Source: Eledone cirrhosa
Lineage: Eukaryota
DNA length: 64,000 bases
Direction: 5' to 3'
NCBI GenBank assembly: GCA_964016885.1
Contig: OZ024740.1
Span: forward strand, 264,616,001 to 264,680,000
A program made the translations under genes and the position numbers. Positions 236 to 60,058 of this stretch are shown in pieces (position 1 is the first letter of the stretch; the number at the start of each line of letters is the position of its first letter). Under the pieces are notes generated by a model. It worked only from the letters and a program-made list of their open reading frames with translations, did not search any database and was not told where the DNA came from.

Positions 236-1164
236 GAGAAGAAGTTTATGAAATGGAAATGCGGGTATAAAGAATTTATTAGGTAACAATTGTTTCTATA
301 GTGTATGGGTTACCTATACCTCGCTATTTGAATAATATAAAAATATTATCATAAACCGAAGGTACACTGTAAGCAAACACCCCATGTCGTCAGACTTTTG
401 TATTGGAATGATATGAAAATATTTCATACACTAGATAAAAGAGAAAGAAGGAGGTAGGAAGAGAAGGGGAAGAGGGAAGTGAGTAAGGTGGAGGGAGTCC
501 TAGGATTTAAGACTGTCAGACTAGTAGAGATTGTAAGGAGAGAATGTTTTGGCAGCAGTTAGCTTAATGAGGCGTGTTAGGGTTGGCGGGGGAGGTAAAT
601 TCTTCTAGTGGTGTTGTTCGGACAAAATTTAGTTAAAGGGGTCAAAGTGGTACATAGTTACAGACAAGTTATTGGGGCTATTATAGTAGCAGGTTATTTC
701 TAAAGGGGTCCAGAAAACAGTGTTTAGTACTATTATTATAGAAAGCCATATCTTGTGTATAAACATATAAAACAGAAATTTGCAAACGGTGGTGTAAAAA
801 GGTAACATTATATGCATTTAGAAAAAGAAAAAGTCCTTTTCAAACGATGGTTACAGTATAGTGAACGTTCAATTTCGCTGTTCAAAAGTTTGTTTACCGA
901 CGTTAAAATGCAGTATATCTCCAAATTGCATAATTTGCAGAATCGATGATTTTGCTTATATGCAGGCGCAGATGCAATAATTTGCCAATCAAGGGAGAAT
1001 GCTTGATTGTTCCTCCGGAGCTGCCAGGCTTTATCGGCGAGGGTTGTTACGGAGCACATTTTCTCGTGCCTGATCGAAGATCGATGTTGGTATAGGCGAG
1101 CTTTGAAAGAAGTTGCGGTACATCCGACGTAATACCATTTGTTGGTTCCGGAATTTATTGTACA
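236..1164 (-). mobile_element. Inverted copy of the 3' part (GIY-YIG C-terminal half plus 3' UTR) of Penelope-like element 1
   Basis: Near-perfect reverse complement of 2631-3570. ORF 808-1059(-) TTLADKAWQL...CKLCNLEIYCI...CNHR is the C-terminal part of a PLE endonuclease. Confidence 0.95.
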
Positions 1165-3570
1165 ACATTAATAACGCAGCATGTGATATTGTTAAGAAAC
1201 TGAAAATTGACGACAGAACGGTACCCCTATCTCCAGCTACACCGACTTTTAATCTGAAGGACCATAAGGATAACTTCGATACTAACCCTAAAATTAGATT
1301 AGTATGTCCTTCAAAGTCCGATATGGGTAGAATCAGTAAGTAAATATTAGATCGTATTATCCCCCAAGTTGAGGCTAAGGTAGATATTAAATTATGGGGT
1401 AATACTCAACAGGCAATAAGATGGTTCAATAACATTAGGGACAAAAACAAATCTTCTTTTATTCAATTCGATATAGATGAATACTATTCCTCTATTTCAC
1501 CCGAGACCCTGCATAAGGCCTTCTCTTTCGCTAAGACTAACTCGGACCTCACAAACGAGGAAATTAATATTATACTTGAAGCTAGACGCACAGTAGTGCA
1601 CTTTGAAAATAGTTATTGGGTCCGCAGAGATAGACACTCGGAATTCGACATTACGATGGGTGCTAATGATTCGGCGGAGGTCACGGATCTGGTTGGGATC
1701 TATATAGCCCACAGACTCCAGAGTGAATTTACGGACCTCCACGGCGGAATATACCGCGACGATACACTTCTATTAGTCAAGAATATGAACAAACAAAACC
1801 TAGAAAGGCGACTTAAAAACATTAGGAAACTTTTCTTAGAACTAGGGCTTAATATTACCTTCGAACAAAATCTTAAGGTGGTCAACTTCTTGGATGTCAC
1901 CTTCAACCTTAATAACGGTAATATAGAGCCATTTCACAAACTTAATGAACATCTTAAGTACGGTAATGTAAAATCAAACCATCCCCATTCCATTATTAAA
2001 TCTATCTCTAAAAATATATCCATCAGGATCTCCCGACTGTCGTCTAATTTGCAGACCTTCAACGAGCATGCTGAATATTATAATGACGCACTTAGAAAAG
2101 CTGGTTACTGCGAGAAAATAGAATATCTAGACGATAACCACATAAGTACTATGAATAAAACACATCTAAGTCGAACTAGTATTGCACCACACACACACAT
2201 CAATAGGCATACTAATAGGTGCAAACCAGCAAATAGAGTCAGACGTAGAGAGTACATATGGTATAACCCCGTGTACAATACTTCTATTAGCACTAAGATT
2301 ATCTCACAATTCTATACACTGATAAATAAACACTTTACAACTTCACATAAATACTATAAAATCTTTAACTCGCGCACCATTAGACTCTCATACTCCACTG
2401 CACCTAATATAGAACAAGTAATTAAAAAACTCAACTCAGCAATACTAAATAAGTACATCCCTAATGACTCAGCGCACCAGCATAGCAACATACAACGCAC
2501 TAACATGTAACTACAACCCCACCAAACTATCCAGGATTCTACTGCAAAACATAAAAATAATTGTAACTGCACCAAACTAGGTACGTGCCCACTGAATAAC
2601 CAGTGCCAAGCACGCAATATTGTCTACCGATGTACAATAAATTCCGGAACCAACAAATGGTATTACGTCGGATGTACCGCAACTTCTTTCAAAGCTCGCC
2701 TATACCAACATCGATCTTCGATCAGGCACGAGAAAATGCGCTCCGTAACAACCCTCGCCGATAAAGCCTGGCAGCTCCGGAGGAACAATCAAGCATTCTC
2801 CCTTGATTGGCAAATTATTGCATCTGCGCCTGCATATTAGCAAAATCATCGATTCTGCAAATTATGCAATTTAGAGATATACTGCATTTTAACGTCGGTA
2901 AACAAACTTTTGAACAGCAAAATTGAACGTTCACCATCGTTCACCATCACTGTAACCATCGTTTGAAAAGGACTTTTTCTTTTTTTAAATGCATATAATG
3001 TTACCTTTTTACACCACCGTTTGCAAATTTCTGTTTTATATGTTTATACACAAGATATGGCTTTCTATAATAATAGTACTAAACACTGCTTTCTGGACCC
3101 CTTTAGAAATAACCTGCTACTATAATAGCCCCAATAACTTGTCTGTAACTATGTACCTCTTTGACCCCTTTAACTAAATTTTGTCCGAACAACACCACTA
3201 GAAGAATTTACCTCCCCCGCCAACCCTAACACGCCTCATTAAGCTAACTGCTGCCAAAACATTCTCTCCTTACAATCTCTACTAGTCTGACAGTCTTAAA
3301 TCCTAGGACTCCCTCCACCTTACTCACTTCCCTCTTCCCCTTCTCTTCCTACCTCCTTCTTTCTCTTTTATCTAGTGTATGAAATATTTTCATATCATTC
3401 CAATACAAAAGTCTGACGACATGGGGTGTTTGCTTACAGTGTACCTTCGGTTTATGATAGTATTTTTATATTATTCAAATAGCGAGGTATAGGTAACCCA
3501 TACACTATAGAAACAATTGTTACCTAATAAATTCTTTATACCCGCATTTCCCTTTCATAAACTTCTTCTC
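1165..3570 (+). mobile_element. Penelope-like retroelement 1 (Naiad-type; RT plus GIY-YIG), 5'-truncated, few in-frame stops
   Basis: Motifs LKDHKDNF, RLVCPSKSDMG, FIQFDIDEYY, MGANDSAEVTDLVG, GIYRDD, VNFLDV, SNHP, YIWYNP, CNC..CPLNNQC, IVY..WYYVG. Stops at about 1341, 2508 and 2838. Confidence 0.93.
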
Positions 3571-25440: not shown

Positions 25441-25501
<61 letters not shown>

Positions 25502-25660
25502 TTGGTGCTCTGAAATAGCGATATATATATTAATGTATATATAGTGTATTTTGCAATACTCTGTATGCTTAATTAAAAGCATTTCGAAGACCTTACGCTA
25601 TTGTTTTAGAGTAGTGACAGTCTCACTTACTTTAAATTTTCAGCAAACAAGGGGAGATAA

Positions 25661-25705
25661 AGCTGACAGAGCTCTGTTTCGTACTGATTGGTACTTATCA
25701 AAGCC
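25661..25705 (-). ncRNA. Type I hammerhead ribozyme, U3-A8 core variant
   Basis: Reverse complement of the motif at 26113-26157. Confidence 0.82.
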
Positions 25706-26112
25706 AAGTACTCCACCTGTCCGCTGAAAATCATTACTGTTTGATTCTTATAGAATTCTAGTAATAATCAGGAACTGATTATACAGAGCGGTTGCCGGTC
25801 AATCAGAAATTGAAAATTAGAATTGGTGCTCTGAAATAGCGATATATATATATATATGAATGCAATACACTGTATGCTTAATTAAAAGCATTTCGAAGAC
25901 CTTACGCTTTTGTTTTAGAGTAGTGACAGTCTCACTTACTTTAAATTTTAAACTATATATACTTTCGTATATATATCGCTATTTCAGAGCACCAATTCTA
26001 ATTTTTAATTTCTGCTTGTCCGGCAACCGCTCTGTATAATCAGTTCCTGATTATTACTAGAATTCTATAAGAATCAAACATTCATAATTTTCAGCAAACA
26101 GGTTGAGTACTT

Positions 26113-26157
26113 GGCTTTGATAAGTACCAATCAGTACGAAACAGAGCTCTGTCAGCT
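26113..26157 (+). ncRNA. Type I hammerhead ribozyme, U3-A8 core variant
   Basis: ggct TTGATAA GTAC caatca GTAC GAAA cagagctctg TC agct; GUC triplet, predicted cut after 26153. Confidence 0.85.
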
Positions 26158-26283
26158 TTATCTCCCCTTGTTTGCTGAAAATGTAAAGTAAGTGAGACTG
26201 TCACTACTCTAAAATAATAGCGTAATTTCTTCAAAATGCTTTTAATTAGCATACAGTGTATTGCAAAATACACTATATATACA

Positions 26284-26373
<90 letters not shown>

Positions 26374-30730: not shown

Positions 30731-31108
30731 TGGTGAATTGGTAGAGGGTCGGACGCCATGCTTTGACGCATAGAGTTACGGCTCTTGCCATTCTGAGTTC
30801 AAATCCCGTCGAGGTTAACTTTGCCTTTCATCCTTACGGGGTCGATAAAATAAAGTACCAGTAATGCACTGGATAATTGCTGGCCTTGTGCCAATAGTAG
30901 AAACAATTATTATTATCATCGTTATTGGCAGTATCGGTAGAGGGTTGGACGCCATGCTTTCTAGCATAGTTACGTCTCTTTACGGTCTGAGTTCAAATCC
31001 CGCCGAGGTTAACTTTGCCTTTCATCCTTACGGGGGTCGATAAAATAAAGTACCAGTAATGTACTGGGTAATTGCTGGCCTTATGCCAAAAGTAGAAACA
31101 ATTATTAT
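30731..31108 (+). mobile_element. Two tandem SINE family A copies
   Basis: Copies at 30731-30912 and 30924-31108, with (ATT)n tails. Confidence 0.9.
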
Positions 31109-32029
31109 TATCGTTTACGTTGTTTTCACAGTCGTTACCACTTAACTAATCTTGTGTTTTTAATTATTTTTTCAGTTGAATATGCAAGGTAGGGAAGAAG
31201 ACTTTCAGTGGAATACCGCCACTCCAGAGACAAATATTTGAAATGTTTAAGCAATAATTAGGTAAAGACCGTGGGAGAGCCCGTTTTTCGATACAAAAGT
31301 ACCAATTCTTTAAATGATTATGTGCACTACACCATCAAACATAGTCAGTACGAGTGCGAGTAATTGGGCCATGAATAAATCTAGATCACACAAGATCTTA
31401 ATCGAATTACCTGTAGATATTTCAAACCTGACCATAACTGAAACATTTCACAAAATTACAATCATATACACATTTAATCATCATTCCAAACAGAATGGAG
31501 ATGTGAGTGAAAGGAAGTAATTTCAACTTTATCGATCATGCAATCGTACATACACCACGTCTGATTGTAAGAACCCCCCCCCCCCCTTTACATTTGTGAA
31601 CAAGCCTGGCGTTGTCTTTACGTACAGCTAATGGAAAGATGATACATTCTCTACTCTCTTTTTAATCATATGGGGTGCCTTTGGCTCCTTTACCTTAGTA
31701 AAATAAATTTGTTATATACTGTATGTATTTACTTGACCACCAATCATCCAGTTAATACCTGGAAAAGTGTATCAATGTGTCAATACATATAACTCAATAT
31801 TACTCGGCCTAGTCAATATATTGAGGAATTCTTCATAGAACACACATTTAACGGCGTATCGCAGCACACAAATGGAAGGTTTAATCTCTCCCCTCTTCCC
31901 TATAGTAAGTGTTCTGAGATAAAATTCGACCTTTATACATGGAAAGGTATAGTACATTTATACCACCAATGGGGTAATTTATTACTACAAATTCATAGCA
32001 ATAGGATCTTGTAGCTTCACCACCAGCGG

Positions 32030-43348: not shown

Positions 43349-43670
43349 ATATCTATCTGTCTATCTAAGGCGGGTAAAATTCCCGAGATCCATGGACGAG
43401 TTCTCTCCAGCGGTCTCTGTCCCTCATTATCGCTGCCATGTCCTGCATCTCCAACAGACCAGTGTCTGTCCTTAGGGCATCAACATACGTTAACCTTGGT
43501 CTTCCTCTTCTAGTGTGTCCATGTAGGGGCTCCCAAAGGAGCACTGAGTGCAATGTCAACTCTGGATGTCGGTGAGCATGTCCAGCCAACCTCAGTCTCC
43601 TCTGTGTAACTTTTGAGCTGACTTTTGGGATGCTCCCATACAGCTCTGAGTTTTTCATCCTCAGTGTATA
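43349..43670 (-). mobile_element. LINE (RTE-like) 3' fragment
   Basis: RRLRLAGHAHRHPE..LLWEP.HG..RGRPRLTY..DRDRWR, followed by an (ATAG)n tail. Confidence 0.85.
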
Positions 43671-43701
43671 CTGATTAATGTTTTGAGCCATTTTGCTGAG
43701 G

Positions 43702-43737
<36 letters not shown>

Positions 43738-43739
<2 letters not shown>

Positions 43740-44160
43740 TAGAATTGGAGCTCTGAAATAGCCATATATATATATGAATGTATATATAGTGTATTTTGCA
43801 ATACACTTTATGCTTAATTAAAAGCATTTTGAAGATATATATATGGCTATTTCAAAGCTCCAATTCTAATTTTTTATTTCTGCCTGACCGGCAACCGCTC
43901 TGTATAATCAGTTCCTGATTATTTACTAGAATTCTATAAGAATATAACATCAGTGATCTCAGTAGACGGGAGGGAGTAGTTAGCCTTGATAAGCATAAAC
44001 AAATGCAGAAACAAGGCCTTGTCGGCTTTATCTCCCCCTGTTTGCTGAGATTAAAGTAGGTTAGTCTGTCACTACTCTAAAACAATAGCATACGGTCTTC
44101 AAAATGCTTTTAATTAAGCATAAAGTGTATTGCAACATACACTATATATACATTCATATA
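43738..44160. mobile_element. Second locus of the 321-bp retrozyme-like family (partial monomer plus inverted full monomer)
   Basis: Homologous to 25495-26290 with the same termini: 43738-43835 antisense, 43836-44160 sense. Confidence 0.85.
43982..44027 (+). ncRNA. Type I hammerhead ribozyme, U3-A8 core variant
   Basis: agcc TTGATAA GCAT aaacaa ATGC a GAAA caaggccttg TC ggct; all stems covary with the 26113 copy. Confidence 0.83.
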
Positions 44161-44214
44161 TAAATATATATTAATTCAAAATATTAACAAAATAGATATT
44201 CTTGTGATCAAGTA

Positions 44215-44281
44215 TATTTTATTATACATATTTCAGAGGTACTGAGTTAAGTTCAACAGTACGTCCTCATCAGATAAAATA
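44215..44281 (-). ncRNA. Type I hammerhead ribozyme
   Basis: Reverse complement of 44386-44452. Confidence 0.85.
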
Positions 44282-44385
44282 AGATGATGCATGACATACC
44301 CTGACATAGTAGATGGTTAAGATTCAGTCACTACCATGACTGAATCTTAACCATCTACTATGTCAGGGTATGTCATGCATCATCT

Positions 44386-44452
44386 TATTTTATCTGATGA
44401 GGACGTACTGTTGAACTTAACTCAGTACCTCTGAAATATGTATAATAAAATA
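44386..44452 (+). ncRNA. Type I hammerhead ribozyme
   Basis: tattttat CTGATGA ggacgtactg..cagtacctct GAAA tatgta TA ataaaata. Confidence 0.87.
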
Positions 44453-44499
44453 TACTTGATCACAGGAATATCTAATTTGTTAATATTTTGAATTAATAT

Positions 44500-46345
44500 T
44501 AATAACTCTGGAAAATCTTTTTAAAACATTCTACAAACACTTTTGTTCTTTCCGATAAAACTAAAAATCTCTTTGAAGTTAATAGTATTTTATATACCCA
44601 ACTTTTAACTGATAGTATCACCAACAAATATCAATTAACTAATAATAATAATACCTACAATACTATTAATAAAGAAGCTAAAGAACTAGCTAGTTCTTTA
44701 AAAATAGACAACCGGATTGAAAGCCTAGCTAAACGTAAAGGATATATTACCCTTAAAGACCAAAAAGTAGACCTTACTAATCGACCTAGTTGTAGACTGA
44801 TTAACCCGGCTAAATCAGAAGTTGGCCTTGCAAGTAAAAAAATCTTAAGAAAAATAATTCTCCAAATTAGAATTAATACTGACTTATCACAATGGTTAAA
44901 TACATCCTCTGTTATTTCTTGGTTTAATAATATACAAGGTAAAAATAAGTGTAGATTTACCCAATTTGATATTGTTGATTTTTACCCTCTACTACTGTTT
45001 CCTTATTAACTAATGCCTTAGACTTTGCAAGACCCTTCATTAATATTTCTAAATTAGAAGAACACATTATCTTTCATTCTAGAAAAACGTTACTCTTTAC
45101 TAATGAAAGTATTTGGGTTAAAAAGTCAAACCCTGAAAACTCTTTTGATGTTGCAATGGGTTCATATGACAGTGCGGATGTGTGTGACTTAGTAGGATTA
45201 TTCCTTTTCCACACCCTCAAAGAGAAATTTCCTTCCCATAATATCGGTTTATACCGTGACGACGGATTGGCAGTTTCTCATACCAGCAACGGCCATAACC
45301 TTGATAAATTCCGTAAAGATTTAATCAATACTTTTGCTAATCTTATCCTTAAAATTACTATAGATACGAACCTTACCAATGCTAACTTTCTTGATATTAA
45401 TCTTGATCTACTTACTGCTTCTTTTAAACCTTATCATAAACCTAACGAGAATCTTAGATATATACACAAAGAGTCTTGCCATCCCCCTATAGTTTTTAAA
45501 AATCTTATTCCCAACATTAGCTGTAGGATTTCTACCTTATCTTCGTCTCTAGACATTTTTAATAAAGCCGCCCCTTACTATAATAAAGCCCTTAATAACA
45601 GCGGATTTACTGAACAAATTAATTATTTATCTACCCCCCCCCCCTAAAACTAACCACAATAATAGGAAAAGGAAAATTATTTGGTTTACACCCCCTTCTC
45701 TCTGTCAAAACTAATGTAGGAAGGAAATTCCTTGACCTCTTAGATAAACATTTTCCTCCTAATCATAGATATTATAAGATATTTAATAGAAATGCAGTTA
45801 AAATTAGTTACTCTTGCTGCCCATCAATGAAGTGTAAAATCAGTAATTCCAATCGTACGCGAATAAATCCAGGATGCAGTTGCAGGAAGCCGGATGAATG
45901 CACATTACAGGGCAAATGTAACACCAAATCCGTTGTATACGAGGCCAAAGTAACACCTTTAATTAACAACCAGCCAGCCAGGAGTGGACGATATGTTGGC
46001 ATTTCCCAGGAGAGGTTTAAAACCAGGTGTTATGCACATGTCACTTCTTTTAAACACTCCGATAAAAGAACAGCAACGGCTCTCGCAAATAAGGTGTGGG
46101 AATTCAAGGATAAAAACATCCCGTACTCTATCGATTGGTCTATTTTAGACCATTCGAGGGAGTACCAAAGGGGCACAAAGAATTGTTCTTTGTGCAGCAC
46201 TGAAAAATTTAGGATTTTACAAAACTTGAAAGCCAGTTCAACTTGCCTGAACTCCAAGACCGCTTTCTTCAGATGTTGTCCTCACCTGAAATCACATCTG
46301 ATCTGTAACTGGATTGACATTCCTACGATAACTCAACCACCTTGA
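44500..46345 (+). mobile_element. Penelope-like retroelement 2 (Naiad-type), frameshifted; AT-rich 3' region may extend to about 48230
   Basis: SDKTKN, RLINPAKSEVG, QFDIVDFYPS, MGSYDSADVCDLVG, GLYRDDGL, SCHPP, RKRKIIWF, CSC..C.LQGKC, VVY..YVG, CSLCSTEK, CPH. Confidence 0.93.
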
Positions 46346-47013: not shown

Positions 47014-48127
47014 TTGTATGTGTGTATGTATATGCATTTTTACATACAGTGATTTAATGCTTATTTTCTTTGATCATTTTCTCCAGGAACTTGTTGAGTG
47101 CTCTAAATCAGCTAATATCTTACTACCTAATTAGTTTAAAATCTTCTTCTCTCAAATCTTTTATTTCTTTTACAAATATACCCATCTTTCTACCTTATTT
47201 CGGTATATTATACAATTTACTCATTCTATGTCGTTAGCGGTCCCTTAATTTTCTTATTTTTTATCCTTTTTTCTTTTTTAATTTCTAATCTTTAATCTGC
47301 AACTTTTACTTCTAAATTACTTCTTAATTCATAGCATAACTTACTATACCATTTTCCTTATATTCTTGGCCATACAAATTTTATTGTTAATATATACTAT
47401 TATTAGCATTAGTAAATTTTGTAAACATATATTTTTTTTGACGTTATATAGTTTTTCTTCCTTGAATTTTCTTCTTTCTTCTCCCCTTCCCTGCTCGTAT
47501 TAAACCTATTATTTACTTTTTTCTTATTACAATACATAGAAACAAACTTGGACCCTAACTAATTCCTCTAAGTTCATAATTCATTTAACCTTTTCCTCAT
47601 TCACCTGATCACCTTAATATTTTTTATTTTAATAATACATTTTAATAAATTCCTTTTCGCACATATTATTAAACCCTTCCATATATAAACCTTAAATAAA
47701 TACTATTCTTAATTCCTTTTCTTTAATCATAAACATCACCATTCATAACCCTCATTAACTTTTAATTTCAAAATGTTAAAAAAACATTTTTTTTATTTTT
47801 TTAAATTATGTATTATCTTACAACGGTTTTTTTTTTATTTCTCTCTGAGACAGTTTTTCTCAGTATTAAAGGTTATATATATCTCTCTCACTCATTTCTC
47901 CTCCTCTCTCATCCTTCCTTCTCATACTCCTCCTCCGTCATGCTTTCCTTATTATTATATATATATATTTTTATTATTATTTTCTTTCTTCCCCTTCCTT
48001 ACCTTTTCCTTCCCCCTTCCTTCTTTTTTTTTCTCAATCTCATATATCGATCTTATTTTATTTTTCATATGTTGATTTAACACTTCACTGCTCGCAAGTG
48101 TTTTTTAAGCTTCATATCATGTCTCCC

Positions 48128-48198
48128 TATTTTATCTGATGAGAACGCAAATATCATCCCATGATGATATTTGTTTTTGAAATGCGCATAATAAAATA
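48128..48198 (+). ncRNA. Type I hammerhead ribozyme
   Basis: tattttat CTGATGA gaacgcaaatatcatc ccat gatgatatttgttttt GAAA tgcgca TA ataaaata. Confidence 0.88.
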
Positions 48199-56349: not shown

Positions 56350-58760
56350 ACTAACATGGAAAGACACCACATAGGCATGTCCTTAAAAACATACCTATAC
56401 CTACAAACAGGGAATACACACTCGTTATGATACAAAGAACTAATGACTTTATCCGTCGAATCCGATGGAAAGCATATCATTACGATAAAGGACATAATAA
56501 TAATGATAGGAATGATGGATTTACCAGTGAAAAATATGGGTTCAAATCCTGTAAAAATCCCCCGAACAACCCACAACTTGATGCCTTTGAACTTGACCTC
56601 ATGAACATGATAAACGAAACCAAATTCAAAAAACGAGCGCATCACAACAAACTGCAAAATAACATCAATGCACTACTAAAAAAATTGCGTAACACCAACG
56701 GTATTATAGTAAAGGCAGACAAAACATCAAACGTATACACCATGAGCCTTAATACATACAAAAACTCTATACGCCGGGAATTACACGAAAAATACAAGAA
56801 AACTACAGAGTCTACATTCAATAACATTAATAATGAAGGACTTAAAATAGAAAAAAAAACTGAAAATATCTGATAGAACCGAACCTCTGACCCCTTGAAA
56901 ACCCACTTTTAATCTGAAAGATCATAAATGCAACTTCAAAACTGACCCTACTATTAGATTAATATGCCCATCAAAATCTGATATAGACACAATTAGCAAG
57001 TATATACTAGATAGAATAATACCACAAATTAAAGAAAAACTAATAATTAAGCTTTGGGGTAACACTAATGAAGCAATAGATTGGTTTAGCAAATTAGACA
57101 ATAAGGAATCTTCCGACTTCATACAATTTGACATCAATGACTACTACTCTATTTGTCCAGTCACCCTAAATAAGGCACTAACCTTTGCACAAATAAATCT
57201 GGCCTATCACCAGATGAAATTAAAATAATACTAGCTGCTAGAAAAACAATCATTAGGTTCGATAATAGTTACTGGGAAAGAAAAAATAGACAAAATAACT
57301 TTGATATCACTATGGGATCGAACGATTCGGCTCAAGTAACGGACATTGTCGGAATATATATAGCACGTATCTTGCATAAGGAATTTGATAACCTACAGGG
57401 AGGAATTTATAGAGACGATACATTACTTTTAACTAAAAACCTAAATAATTAAAACTTGGAAAGATTCCGTAAAAAGATTAGAACATTCTTCAATAAATTA
57501 GGCCTAAACATCACTTTTGGATTCAACTCTAAAAAAGCTAACTTCTTAGATGTATCACTTAACCTAAACATAGGATTAATTGAACCGTACCATAAAAATA
57601 ACGAAAATCTAGCTTACATTAATTATAACTCAAATCACCCTCGCTCCATAATTAACTCCATAGCACATAGTATATCCCTTAGAATTTCACAATTATCTTC
57701 TAATCTAGAGATTTTAACAAACACGCTAACTACTACAAAATAGCTTTACTTACGGCAAGCCATAAAGAGAGACTCAAATACATACCAGATACAAACAATA
57801 ACAACACACTTAACAGCAATAACACTATCCACACCTATAGACACAAACAATCTAGGACTGAACATAGAAATTGGCAACAAGCACCAGAAATAATTGAACC
57901 GAATACTAATATAAGGACCACTAGAAACTATAGAAGATGCAGAGATAGAAAATACTTATAGTTCAATCCAATATTTAACTCCTCTATAAAAACCAAACTA
58001 GCTTCTACTTTCTTTAAATTAATTGACAAGCACTTCCCTAACCTTCACAAAATACCATAACATCTTTAATAGAAATACTATCAAACTATCTTACTCAACT
58101 GCCACCAATATAGAATCGCACATACATAAAATTAACTATAAAAGAATCTCTAATACAAATAACCTGCAAACAAGCACCATAACACCAAATATAAAACACA
58201 AACACATAACACCATCACAACCAAACACACGTCAGAACACATCACGACAATACATCAACAAACCCAATTCTCAACCCATACATAACAACATACAAGACCG
58301 TATCGCGGAACCGGCACATAGGAAAGCATCAAAATGTAACTGTCATTTACCTGATAAATGCCCACTACAAAATAGATGCCTGGAGTCAAATATAGTGTAC
58401 CTATGTACTATAAATCCAGATAAATTAGCATGGCACTACATATGTTCGACGGCGGGGGAGTTCAAGAAAAGATGGTATGTCCACAGACACTCTATAAATA
58501 ACTGTAAACTTATGAACACAACGACGCTCGCCAATAAAATCTGGCAATTCAAAGATACAAACCAGGAATACAGAATTAGCTGGGTGAAGTAGTCAACGGC
58601 AATGGCCTATTGTACTGGCATGTCCCATTGTAGACTTTGCAATATGGAATTATTCCATATTTTAAAACATAACAAAATGCGACTTAACAGCAAATTTGAA
58701 CGAACAATTTTCTGTAGACATAAAACCGCGAGCAAATTCGATAATTTCAGACCAAATTAA
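56350..58760 (+). mobile_element. Penelope-like retroelement 3 (Naiad-type), near full-length but with many frameshifts and stops
   Basis: SLKNIPIP..FIRRIRWKAY, KADKTSNVY, RLICPSKSD, MGSNDSAQVTDIVG, IYRDD, NFLDV, SNHP, CNC..CPLQNRC, IVY, TTLANKIW. Confidence 0.93.
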
Positions 58761-58834
58761 TTCATCCCATCTATTCCATAATTCAAATTGTACCACCTGA
58801 ATCTATTATAATAATCTATTATAATAACCTATTA

Positions 58835-59022
58835 GGGCGGTGAATTGGCAGTATCGGTAGAGGGTTGGATGCCATGCTTTCTAGCATAGTTACGTCCCTT
58901 TGCTGTCTGAGTTCAGATCCCGCCGAGGTTAACTTTGCCTTTCATCCTTACGGGGTCGATAAAATAAAGTAGTGTACTGGGTAATTGCTGGCCTTGTGCC
59001 TAAAGTAGAAACAATTATTATT
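58835..59022 (+). mobile_element. SINE family A inserted downstream of element 3
   Basis: Matches the family consensus. Confidence 0.88.
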
Positions 59023-59439
59023 GTCATCAACTCTCAATGAACCAACATCATAACCTCTTATATTTTCTCTGTCTCTCATTTTCTATCTTTCTAATTATTT
59101 CCCTAAATTTATTTCACCTCTTACATTATATCTTGTATTAATTTCACTTCTAATATAACTTACAAATAAATAATTGATTAATTATTTAATTAATATATCA
59201 ATGTAACTAATACATATATGAATATATTTAACATTTCTATGTTTATACCATCATATCTCTATATTTTAACCACCAACTACTCTCAATAATCATACTATGT
59301 TTACTTTTCTTCGCACACATATAATTATTTTTTATATATTTTTTTATCATATTTTGTATTAATTTAAATCATCCTCGTTATAACTTATTTATTAACATTT
59401 ATTAATTTATTCATTTATTATTATTATATATATGTAAAA

Positions 59440-60058
59440 ATTTAAATGATATACGTAAAAGTTTCTTTCATATATAGTTGAGAAACAGCTATTATCATAT
59501 TTATACATATAATTGTTTCTACTTTTGGCAGGAGGCCACCAATTACTCCAGTGCATTATTGGTGCTTTATTTTATCGACACCATAAGGATGAAAGGCAAA
59601 GTTAACATTGGCGGGATTTGAACTCAGACTTTAAAGGGCCGTAACTCTATGCTGCAAAGCATGGCGTCCGACTCTCTACCAATGCTGCCATCCACCGCGA
59701 CAAGTAAATATACGGGTTCATAGAAAGAATTAAGCCAAGATTGTCTAAAGTGTGGCTTGGTTCTTTCTATGAGCGAGTACATTTATTTATCATTATATAT
59801 ATTGCCAATATCGGTGGAGGGTCGGACACCATGCTTTCCAGCATAGAATTACGTCCCTTTACGGTATGAGTTCAAATCCCACCGCGGTTAACTTTGCCTT
59901 TCATCCTTATGGGGTCGATAAAATAAAGTACCAGTAATGCACTGGGATACGTGCTGGCCTTGTGCCAAAAGTAGAAGCAATTATATATATGTACATGATA
60001 CTAGTTTTTTCTCAACTAAACATATGAAAGAGGCTTTTTTGTATATCGTTTAAATTTG
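59440..60058. repeat. Diverged about 620-bp palindrome with a SINE A copy in each arm
   Basis: Outer unique arms, inner unique arms and the SINEs at 59510-59697(-) and 59800-59983(+) are all inverted about 59745. Confidence 0.8.

Follow-up and report, generated by a model that had tools for sequence, protein, structure and literature searches.

A ~320-nt hammerhead repeat of Eledone cirrhosa, probably a non-LTR retrozyme mobilised by PLEs, with compensatory changes in its ribozyme stems

Non-LTR retrozymes have been defined, and Penelope-like elements (PLEs) proposed as their partners, in a study whose accessible text describes most metazoan retrozyme circles as leaving the ribozyme free, with no block by self-pairing (PMC7229834). 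Excerpts of PMC8557442 describe PLE insertions with tandems, inversions and tails of 30-40 bp, while U3-A8 cores and hammerhead families full of compensatory changes are already described in parts of PMC4209133. Retrozymes have been linked to pLTRs in the abridged text of a preprint in which one of nine predicted Xenopus retrozyme dimers cleaved in vitro (bioRxiv 10.64898/2026.07.22.740005), and an intact motif is therefore no guarantee of activity. In the giant squid, 235 hammerhead 1 ribozymes were counted, according to an extract of PMC6962438.

Here we describe a hammerhead repeat family of Eledone cirrhosa, starting from a 64-kb window, that is, the stretch of 64,000 nucleotides at positions 264,616,001 to 264,680,000 of contig OZ024740.1 (assembly GCA_964016885.1, forward strand). 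Our data indicate that the stretch around one copy, copy B, is very probably a single insertion of a ~320-nt non-coding hammerhead repeat, and that this repeat is likely to be a non-LTR retrozyme which the reverse transcriptase and endonuclease of a PLE would mobilise in trans.

The copy B insertion, its repeat family and its neighbours

A generic hammerhead scan of both strands of the window found the motif of this family at 43986 (+), 26117 (+) and 25701 (-). Copy B is one full ~320-nt unit on the plus strand (43845 to ~44165, GC 35%). Copy A (25976-26290, plus strand) has its core at 26117 and stem II GTAC/GTAC, and a third, inverted copy that is longer than one unit lies 5' of copy A (25495-25949, minus strand, core at 25701). 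The interval of the original prediction, 43738-44160, opens with an inverted partial copy on the minus strand (43738-43835), in which the end of one unit, the TA-rich linker and the beginning of the unit after it can be recognised; it is 97% identical to 44096-44167. To the left lies a (TA)17 microsatellite (43703-43736), likely the target tract of the copy B insertion, so that the layout runs from (TA)17 through the inverted junction fragment and one unit to TA.

Within copy B, all on the plus strand, a highly conserved 5' flank with small hairpins and a 21-nt motif (43895-43950) precedes the ribozyme domain, which is bounded by an enclosing stem whose 5' strand (43956-43967) pairs with 44040-44051. 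The 5' strand of stem I, AGCC (43982-43985), pairs with GGCT (44024-44027) and is followed by core positions 3-9, TTGATAA, a U3-A8 variant (43986-43992). Stem II (43993-44006) is formed by GCAT (43993-43996) and ATGC (44003-44006) around a 6-nt A-rich loop. One extra A at 44007, between C11.1 and G12, separates stem II from the core GAAA (G12, A13, A14 and A15.1; 44008-44011). Next comes the helix III segment CAAGGCCTTG, a 10-nt palindrome (44012-44021) whose 5' half can alternatively pair with 43983-43988, and the GUC triplet (44021-44023, with TC at 44022-44023). The hammerhead consensus places the predicted cleavage of copy B between 44023 and 44024. The TA-rich linker, which belongs to the unit and at which insertions usually end on their 3' side, occupies 44143-44165.

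We found the core of a type I hammerhead, with (C/U)UGAN(G/A)A, GAAA, UH and three helices open at stem I, from which copy B departs by the one extra A before G12. At gathering thresholds, Rfam gave no matches in the 64-kb window. Below them, Hammerhead_HH9 (RF02275, clan CL00010) matched in two of five loci with E-values of 7e-4 and 0.0099, and no listed hammerhead match was found in the other three. These are matches to the whole model, the stem I loop containing UAC and loop II being of the C-CAA-AG type, but they score 27.5 and 23.9 bits, so that even the best lies under the gathering score of 52. By its motif the family is likely a hammerhead retrozyme with putative self-cleavage.

Anatomy, copy number and insertion ends of the family can be read directly from the assembly (3.0 Gb, 1,796 contigs), which is the basis of all genome-wide counts. 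Units of the element, ~320 nt long, join head to tail, carry a type I hammerhead motif and have a GC content of 35%; successive cores lie 315-325 nt apart at many loci, and the linker between them is conserved. A stem-agnostic exact pattern for U3-A8 cores has 2,762 genome matches (one for the reversed control), that for C3-G8 cores 1,453 (control 0), and that for cores with one additional letter before GAAA 289 (control 1); among the first 100 of these 289 matches listed, the letter is an A in 90, counted by eye. The sum of the three exact patterns puts the family at no fewer than ~4,500 copies. The 21-nt motif of the 5' flank has 2,661 exact genome matches. No ATG ORF of 40 aa is present inside three tandem units. 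Tandem units of 150-450 bp that each carry a type I hammerhead, that are non-coding and that have a GC content below 45-50% are among the features by which non-LTR retrozymes are recognised, and the family shows these; the others are RNA present as linear and circular forms of unit length and, where a target-site duplication occurs, one of more than 4 bp.

The ends of the insertions merge with (TA)n tracts. Among 107 anchored copies, some of which have an insertion site in common, the 3' end is the linker in 70 and a tail of at most 45 nt in 31 (101 together); 79 have a 5' inverted copy and 72 continue into TA repeats. At the 5' side their start points vary widely, and 2 begin no more than 10 nt from the predicted cleavage site, a count to be read with the fact that anchored copies contain the core by design, so that core-less copies starting at the cleavage site are invisible. 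Partial tandems, 5' inversions, a tail of 30-40 bp and a microsatellite target, all found here, are features of mobilisation by PLEs according to excerpts of PMC8557442. At two loci, L110 (G000:C1:82390350-82396100) and L123, the 320-nt unit is repeated in long tandem arrays in which many cores have decayed; these may be source loci or may have been amplified locally at a later time. At another locus, L169, two tandem units are without the entire ribozyme domain while both flanks are retained. A string resembling a hammerhead, present antisense in some units, is probably due to chance: no stem I pairing was seen for it, and it is absent from copy B.

The same scan of the window revealed a different hammerhead motif at 44394 (+), 44273 (-) and 48136 (+). 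The first two belong to a separate PLE-like element that adjoins copy B (44168-46345), where they form the long-stem-II hammerheads of its palindromic repeat (44168-44499). The remainder (44506-46345) consists of RT-like and C-terminal GIY-YIG-like frames with two frameshifts. From its linker motif, the element presumably belongs to the Hydra clade. Pfam returned no families for three frames of this element and one other frame; Atlas leads for its frames show RVT_1 in 11% and GIY-YIG in 23% of cluster members. In our reading, copy B and this element were inserted together into one TA tract. We considered and rejected the possibility that copy B is this element's terminal repeat, since the element's ORF lies beside only 1 of the 30 loci of a search with copy B, namely the window's own, and since the element has a repeat of its own.

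Several other features of the window were noted. The motif at 48136 (window 48120-48195) is a minimal-type hammerhead with a CTGATGA core, whose stem I is as at 44394 while its stem II is different; relatives are found at L154/L085, L071/L072, L037, L002 and others. Remnants of PLE-like RT/endonuclease frames at 236-3570 and 56866-58718 are ~30-45% identical to the one at 44506, and the former is framed by a 622-nt inverted repeat (99%). Directly left of the TA tract, a minus-strand frame (43365-43700) without a Pfam match resembles, we presume, the 3' end of an RTE-type LINE. An abundant ~190-nt repeat, tandem and inverted at 30740-31112 and 58800-60000, is presumably a cephalopod tRNA-derived SINE.

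Compensatory change between copies and subfamilies

The original prediction rested on a comparison of copy A with copy B, which is a single contrast with no independent replicates. Its quoted strings are all found where it had placed them, its position 26113 being the start of stem I in copy A and the core itself following at 26117. As it had claimed, the ribozyme stems differ by compensatory changes: of 25 pairs none is broken in its own register, 15 being unchanged, 6 double substitutions, 3 one-sided changes to or from G-U and 1 a compensated deletion. The last concerns the outermost pair of the enclosing stem, T-A in copy A and A-T in copy B, each pairing in its own register; runs of T3/A4 and T3/A3 in intermediate copies correspond to a compensated one-pair deletion. 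Alignment scores this pair as broken, an artefact of gap placement, while the sequences read directly show pairing. Divergence is indeed lower in the remainder of the monomer: the flanks are 89-90% identical (98/109 in the 5' flank and 77/87 in the 3' flank) and the ribozyme domain 75% (70/93). The 95-nt domain folds better than all of 200 shuffles, with z-scores of -6.3 for copy B and -4.8 for copy A.

Covariation in a larger alignment was assessed in a sample chosen by flank motif and not by ribozyme, namely the first 100 of the 2,661 matches of the 21-nt motif. Seven of these were dropped for large deletions or truncation, and one copy per site was kept, which left 76 copies (plus the 2 window copies); L090 and L187 were excluded from alignment A2 for long indels. 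Overall, 93.9% of 1,717 cells pair, 161 are double-changed and the covariation score is 0.304, and none of 500 shuffles, which ignore relatedness, reached any of these values. Slid controls gave 25-43% pairing, and for two further counts 33 and 72 of the 500 shuffles attained the observed value.

Since relatedness inflates covariation counts, we also contrasted changes at the level of subfamilies with changes private to single copies. Alternative pairs at subfamily level keep pairing in 12 of 14 cases, compared to 14 of 64 private changes (Fisher p 1.3e-5), the other 50 private changes breaking it; a looser cut gave 13/16 and 17/83 (p about 1e-5). The two subfamily-level exceptions are the gap artefact at the outermost pair and a central G-A in helix III. 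Differences between subfamilies thus keep pairing while private ones mostly break it, which places selection on the source RNAs and not on the inserted copies. Together with the covariation of the 76 copies, this contrast bears out the original prediction that RNA structure was under selection in the source elements. For catalysis the support is indirect and comes from switching of the 3:8 core pair, which is C-G in 19 of the 76 copies, U-A in 54-56 and unpaired in 3, a pattern that would fit selection on catalysis in the source elements.

Nine invariant core positions show no between-group changes at the stricter cut, though this is not significantly different from the well conserved flanks (p 0.6). 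Private changes amount to 0.78 per site in the core and 0.78 in the flanks, and this equality indicates that inserted copies decay neutrally. Between subfamilies, change amounts to 0.12 per site in the unit flanks (43895-43950 and 44052-44140) compared to 0.42 in the ribozyme stems. The flanks, which contain several small hairpins, are thus about three times less changed than the stems; protein binding or a promoter would be a guess at the cause.

The original prediction also spoke of at least two subfamilies. The phrase understates the diversity: subfamilies number far more than two and form a ladder with G-U intermediates. Stem II passes through the series TCGC/GCGT, ACAC/GTGT, ATAC/GTAT, GTAC/GTAC, GCAC/GTGC, GCAT/ATGC and GCTT/AAGC, helix III is 7, 8, 9 or 10 nt long and has G-U intermediates; among the amplified intermediates are CAGGGCTCTG, GCAT/GTGC and GGCT/GGCT. 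Core position 7, which is free, varies, and positions 4-6 and 12-16.1 retain one majority letter. Older subfamilies have U-U or A-U at 10.1-11.1, and one amplified A-type variant has a broken helix III pair (8 of 76 copies; U-C in 3 and C-C in 5). Given that the family trees are ladders, the independent compensatory events are few, roughly a dozen as tallied per subfamily and not per branch.

The extra A before G12 and an alternative helix

The extra A that had been predicted for copy B is present at 44007, but it is not peculiar to copy B: it is common to the amplified sub-lineage of the 289-match pattern. Exact matches to B-type stems II and III number 182 with the extra A and 358 without it, and those with stem I AGCC number 40 and 192, respectively. 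A private lesion or a sequencing error is ruled out by the 182 exact matches. In a tree of 55 rows that leaves this letter out (111 copies extracted, of which each locus id contributed one, with B-like rows over-represented), the extra A needs two changes, which are forced by the starred branches, and a single clade of the 27 extra-A rows is rejected (AU p 0.0002). Rooted on A-type copies, the tree reads as if the extra A had been gained once and later lost once, and as if it had persisted through the changes in stem I and the enclosing stem that define copy B. Local template switching with a canonical copy may be the source of this pattern. We consider a tolerated bulge more likely than the cutting of these RNAs in trans by partners. 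Lunse et al. reportedly describe PLE hammerhead variants that may bear on the extra A.

Stem III had been predicted to change from cagag/ctctg to caagg/ccttg. The change is compensated; however, both forms are palindromes with a loop of zero nucleotides and are fully paired only in a dimer, the inner pairs therefore being impossible within one molecule. The predicted energies are -1.8 and 0.0 kcal/mol for the helix III hairpin and -20.1 and -19.5 kcal/mol for the homodimer, and by this model the inner pairs of helix III are dimer pairs.

In the minimum free energy (MFE) folds of copies A and B, the 5' strand of stem I and core positions 3-5 pair with the first half of helix III, and the same alternative helix appears in one natural unit folded as a circle. 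It pairs in 91.5% of 508 cells. In 71 of the 76 copies a model that ignores tertiary stabilisation predicts it to be more stable than the active monomer under constraint, and it is part of the MFE fold in 59. Both of its variable pairs move through G-U: 3:15.4 is C-G in 19, U-G in 30 and U-A in 16 copies, and 2.1:15.5 is U-A in 53, U-G in 10, C-G in 11 and never C-A. Stem I changed to C-G at two places in the tree, each after helix III had gained the matching G. These observations comprise about three events only, and transitions opposite G or U keep pairing automatically. Two of five measures are no higher than in shuffles, and the helix has ~4 bp in the oldest copies and is broken by the mismatch variants.

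We regard as doubtful the idea that the retrozyme is a bistable switch with this pairing as an off helix, the extra-A lineage being either a new active core or a catalytically weak 'cheater'. If it were true, the off helix would explain, in the case of one family, what keeps the circles of metazoan retrozymes from self-cleavage, and 'cheater' RNAs would be cut in trans by canonical partners with a matching palindrome until reversion. In the openly readable literature (supplements and subscription papers being outside it), we found no published description of such a self-blocking helix or of an amplified core with an A before G12.

Proposed mobilisation and comparison with known systems

From sequence we infer how the family may be transcribed, cleaved, circularised and mobilised. 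A tandem copy would be transcribed as a multimer, in which two hammerheads would pair via the palindromic helix III and cut after GUC, giving unit-length RNA that a host ligase would close into a circle. The endonuclease of a PLE would nick a (TA)n tract, where the AU-rich linker of the RNA would anneal, and reverse transcription round the circle and through the cleavage site would leave copies of more than one unit, inversions and tails. Only templates that still fold and cleave would found the next subfamily, so that stems would drift via G-U, and copies once inserted would decay neutrally. RT-like and GIY-YIG-like frames of PLE type also lie in this 64-kb window.

Three other explanations were weighed. 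The units might be 5'-truncated ends (pseudo-LTRs) of an autonomous PLE with a rare ORF and not an independent retrozyme. The insertion anatomy is that of PLEs, and retrozymes are reported to derive from PLE pLTRs in the part of bioRxiv 10.64898/2026.07.22.740005 at hand. We found no autonomous element with the sequence of the unit, and no ORF continuous with it, in the 191 loci screened with one RT query (221 of thousands of loci having been fetched), a coverage that itself leaves room for a rare ORF. Apart from the window's own locus, 10 of the 191 have RT-like matches; three of these (L006, L140 and L153), examined by eye, are neighbours that are not continuous with the unit. Head-to-tail units with a fixed ~320-nt period, a conserved linker and multi-copy arrays also speak against truncated ends, as does the neighbouring PLE, which has a different hammerhead-bearing repeat of its own. 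We consider this explanation unlikely.

More improbable still is a mutational origin of the compensation, in which template switching or hairpin-templated repair would restore palindromes and the ribozyme need not work. Such a process could draw on the covarying pairs lying mostly in short hairpins or a palindrome, on the frequent inversions of these elements and on subfamilies that form one ladder with few independent events. Yet 3:8 is a single core pair outside any helix and nevertheless switches from C-G to U-A with 3 exceptions in 76 copies, G-U intermediates that a one-step templated repair would skip persist as amplified types, and variation is seen at the free position 7, against a single majority letter at each of 4-6 and 12-16.1. 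The structure is conserved over thousands of copies, as would be expected if the inserted genomic copies themselves were under host selection as functional ribozymes; private changes, however, break pairs in 50 of 64 cases and strike the core as often as the flanks, and we give this last explanation the least credence of all. A non-LTR retrozyme mobilised in trans by PLEs is the reading that we prefer.

In the openly readable literature (consulted mostly at record level, with supplements, subscription papers and repeat libraries outside), we found neither this family nor an insertion between 11.1 and 12 described, and the words 'octopus' and 'cephalopod' are both absent from the accessible text of PMC7229834. 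The family resembles the metazoan non-LTR retrozymes of coral, Mytilus and axolotl portrayed there in its type I hammerhead, short low-GC tandem units without an ORF, thousands of copies, palindromic helix III and the presence of PLEs in the same genome; the U-U mismatch at the base of helix II in older subfamilies is found in axolotl HHR_Amex2 as well. Unlike those retrozymes, as far as that text extends, most copies here lie dispersed in (TA)n and show inversions and tails of the PLE type, the helix III segment is self-complementary over 7-10 nt, a sub-lineage carries the extra A before G12, and the predicted fold hides the core.

Minimal hammerheads of PLE pseudo-LTRs, in the portion of PMC4209133 devoted to them, lack helix III, and their helix II is long; they carry an extra base between 9 and 10.1. 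In the family here, stem II has 4 bp, a real segment for helix III is present, the loop motifs resemble those of canonical type I ribozymes and the extra base is on the other strand. Natural core variants in Perreault et al. 2011 (PMC3088659) share U3-A8 covariation, U10.1-U11.1 and single-base insertions (A6a, U13a) with this family, and the available text on core variants names no insertion between 11.1 and 12.

The covariation itself is ordinary and expected of retrozyme and PLE hammerhead families. What the family offers is a closely spaced set of natural variants, in which cores range from C3-G8 to U3-A8 and helix III from 7 to 10 nt, with wobble intermediates, and which can be used to test the changes that a ribozyme tolerates in vivo; whether an A before G12 permits cleavage is one question from it that can be answered cheaply. 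PLE insertion signatures on a retrozyme support the partnership with PLEs that has been proposed and is unproven, and whether a built-in helix stops a circle from cutting itself is a question that PMC7229834, in its accessible text, leaves open and to which this family speaks.
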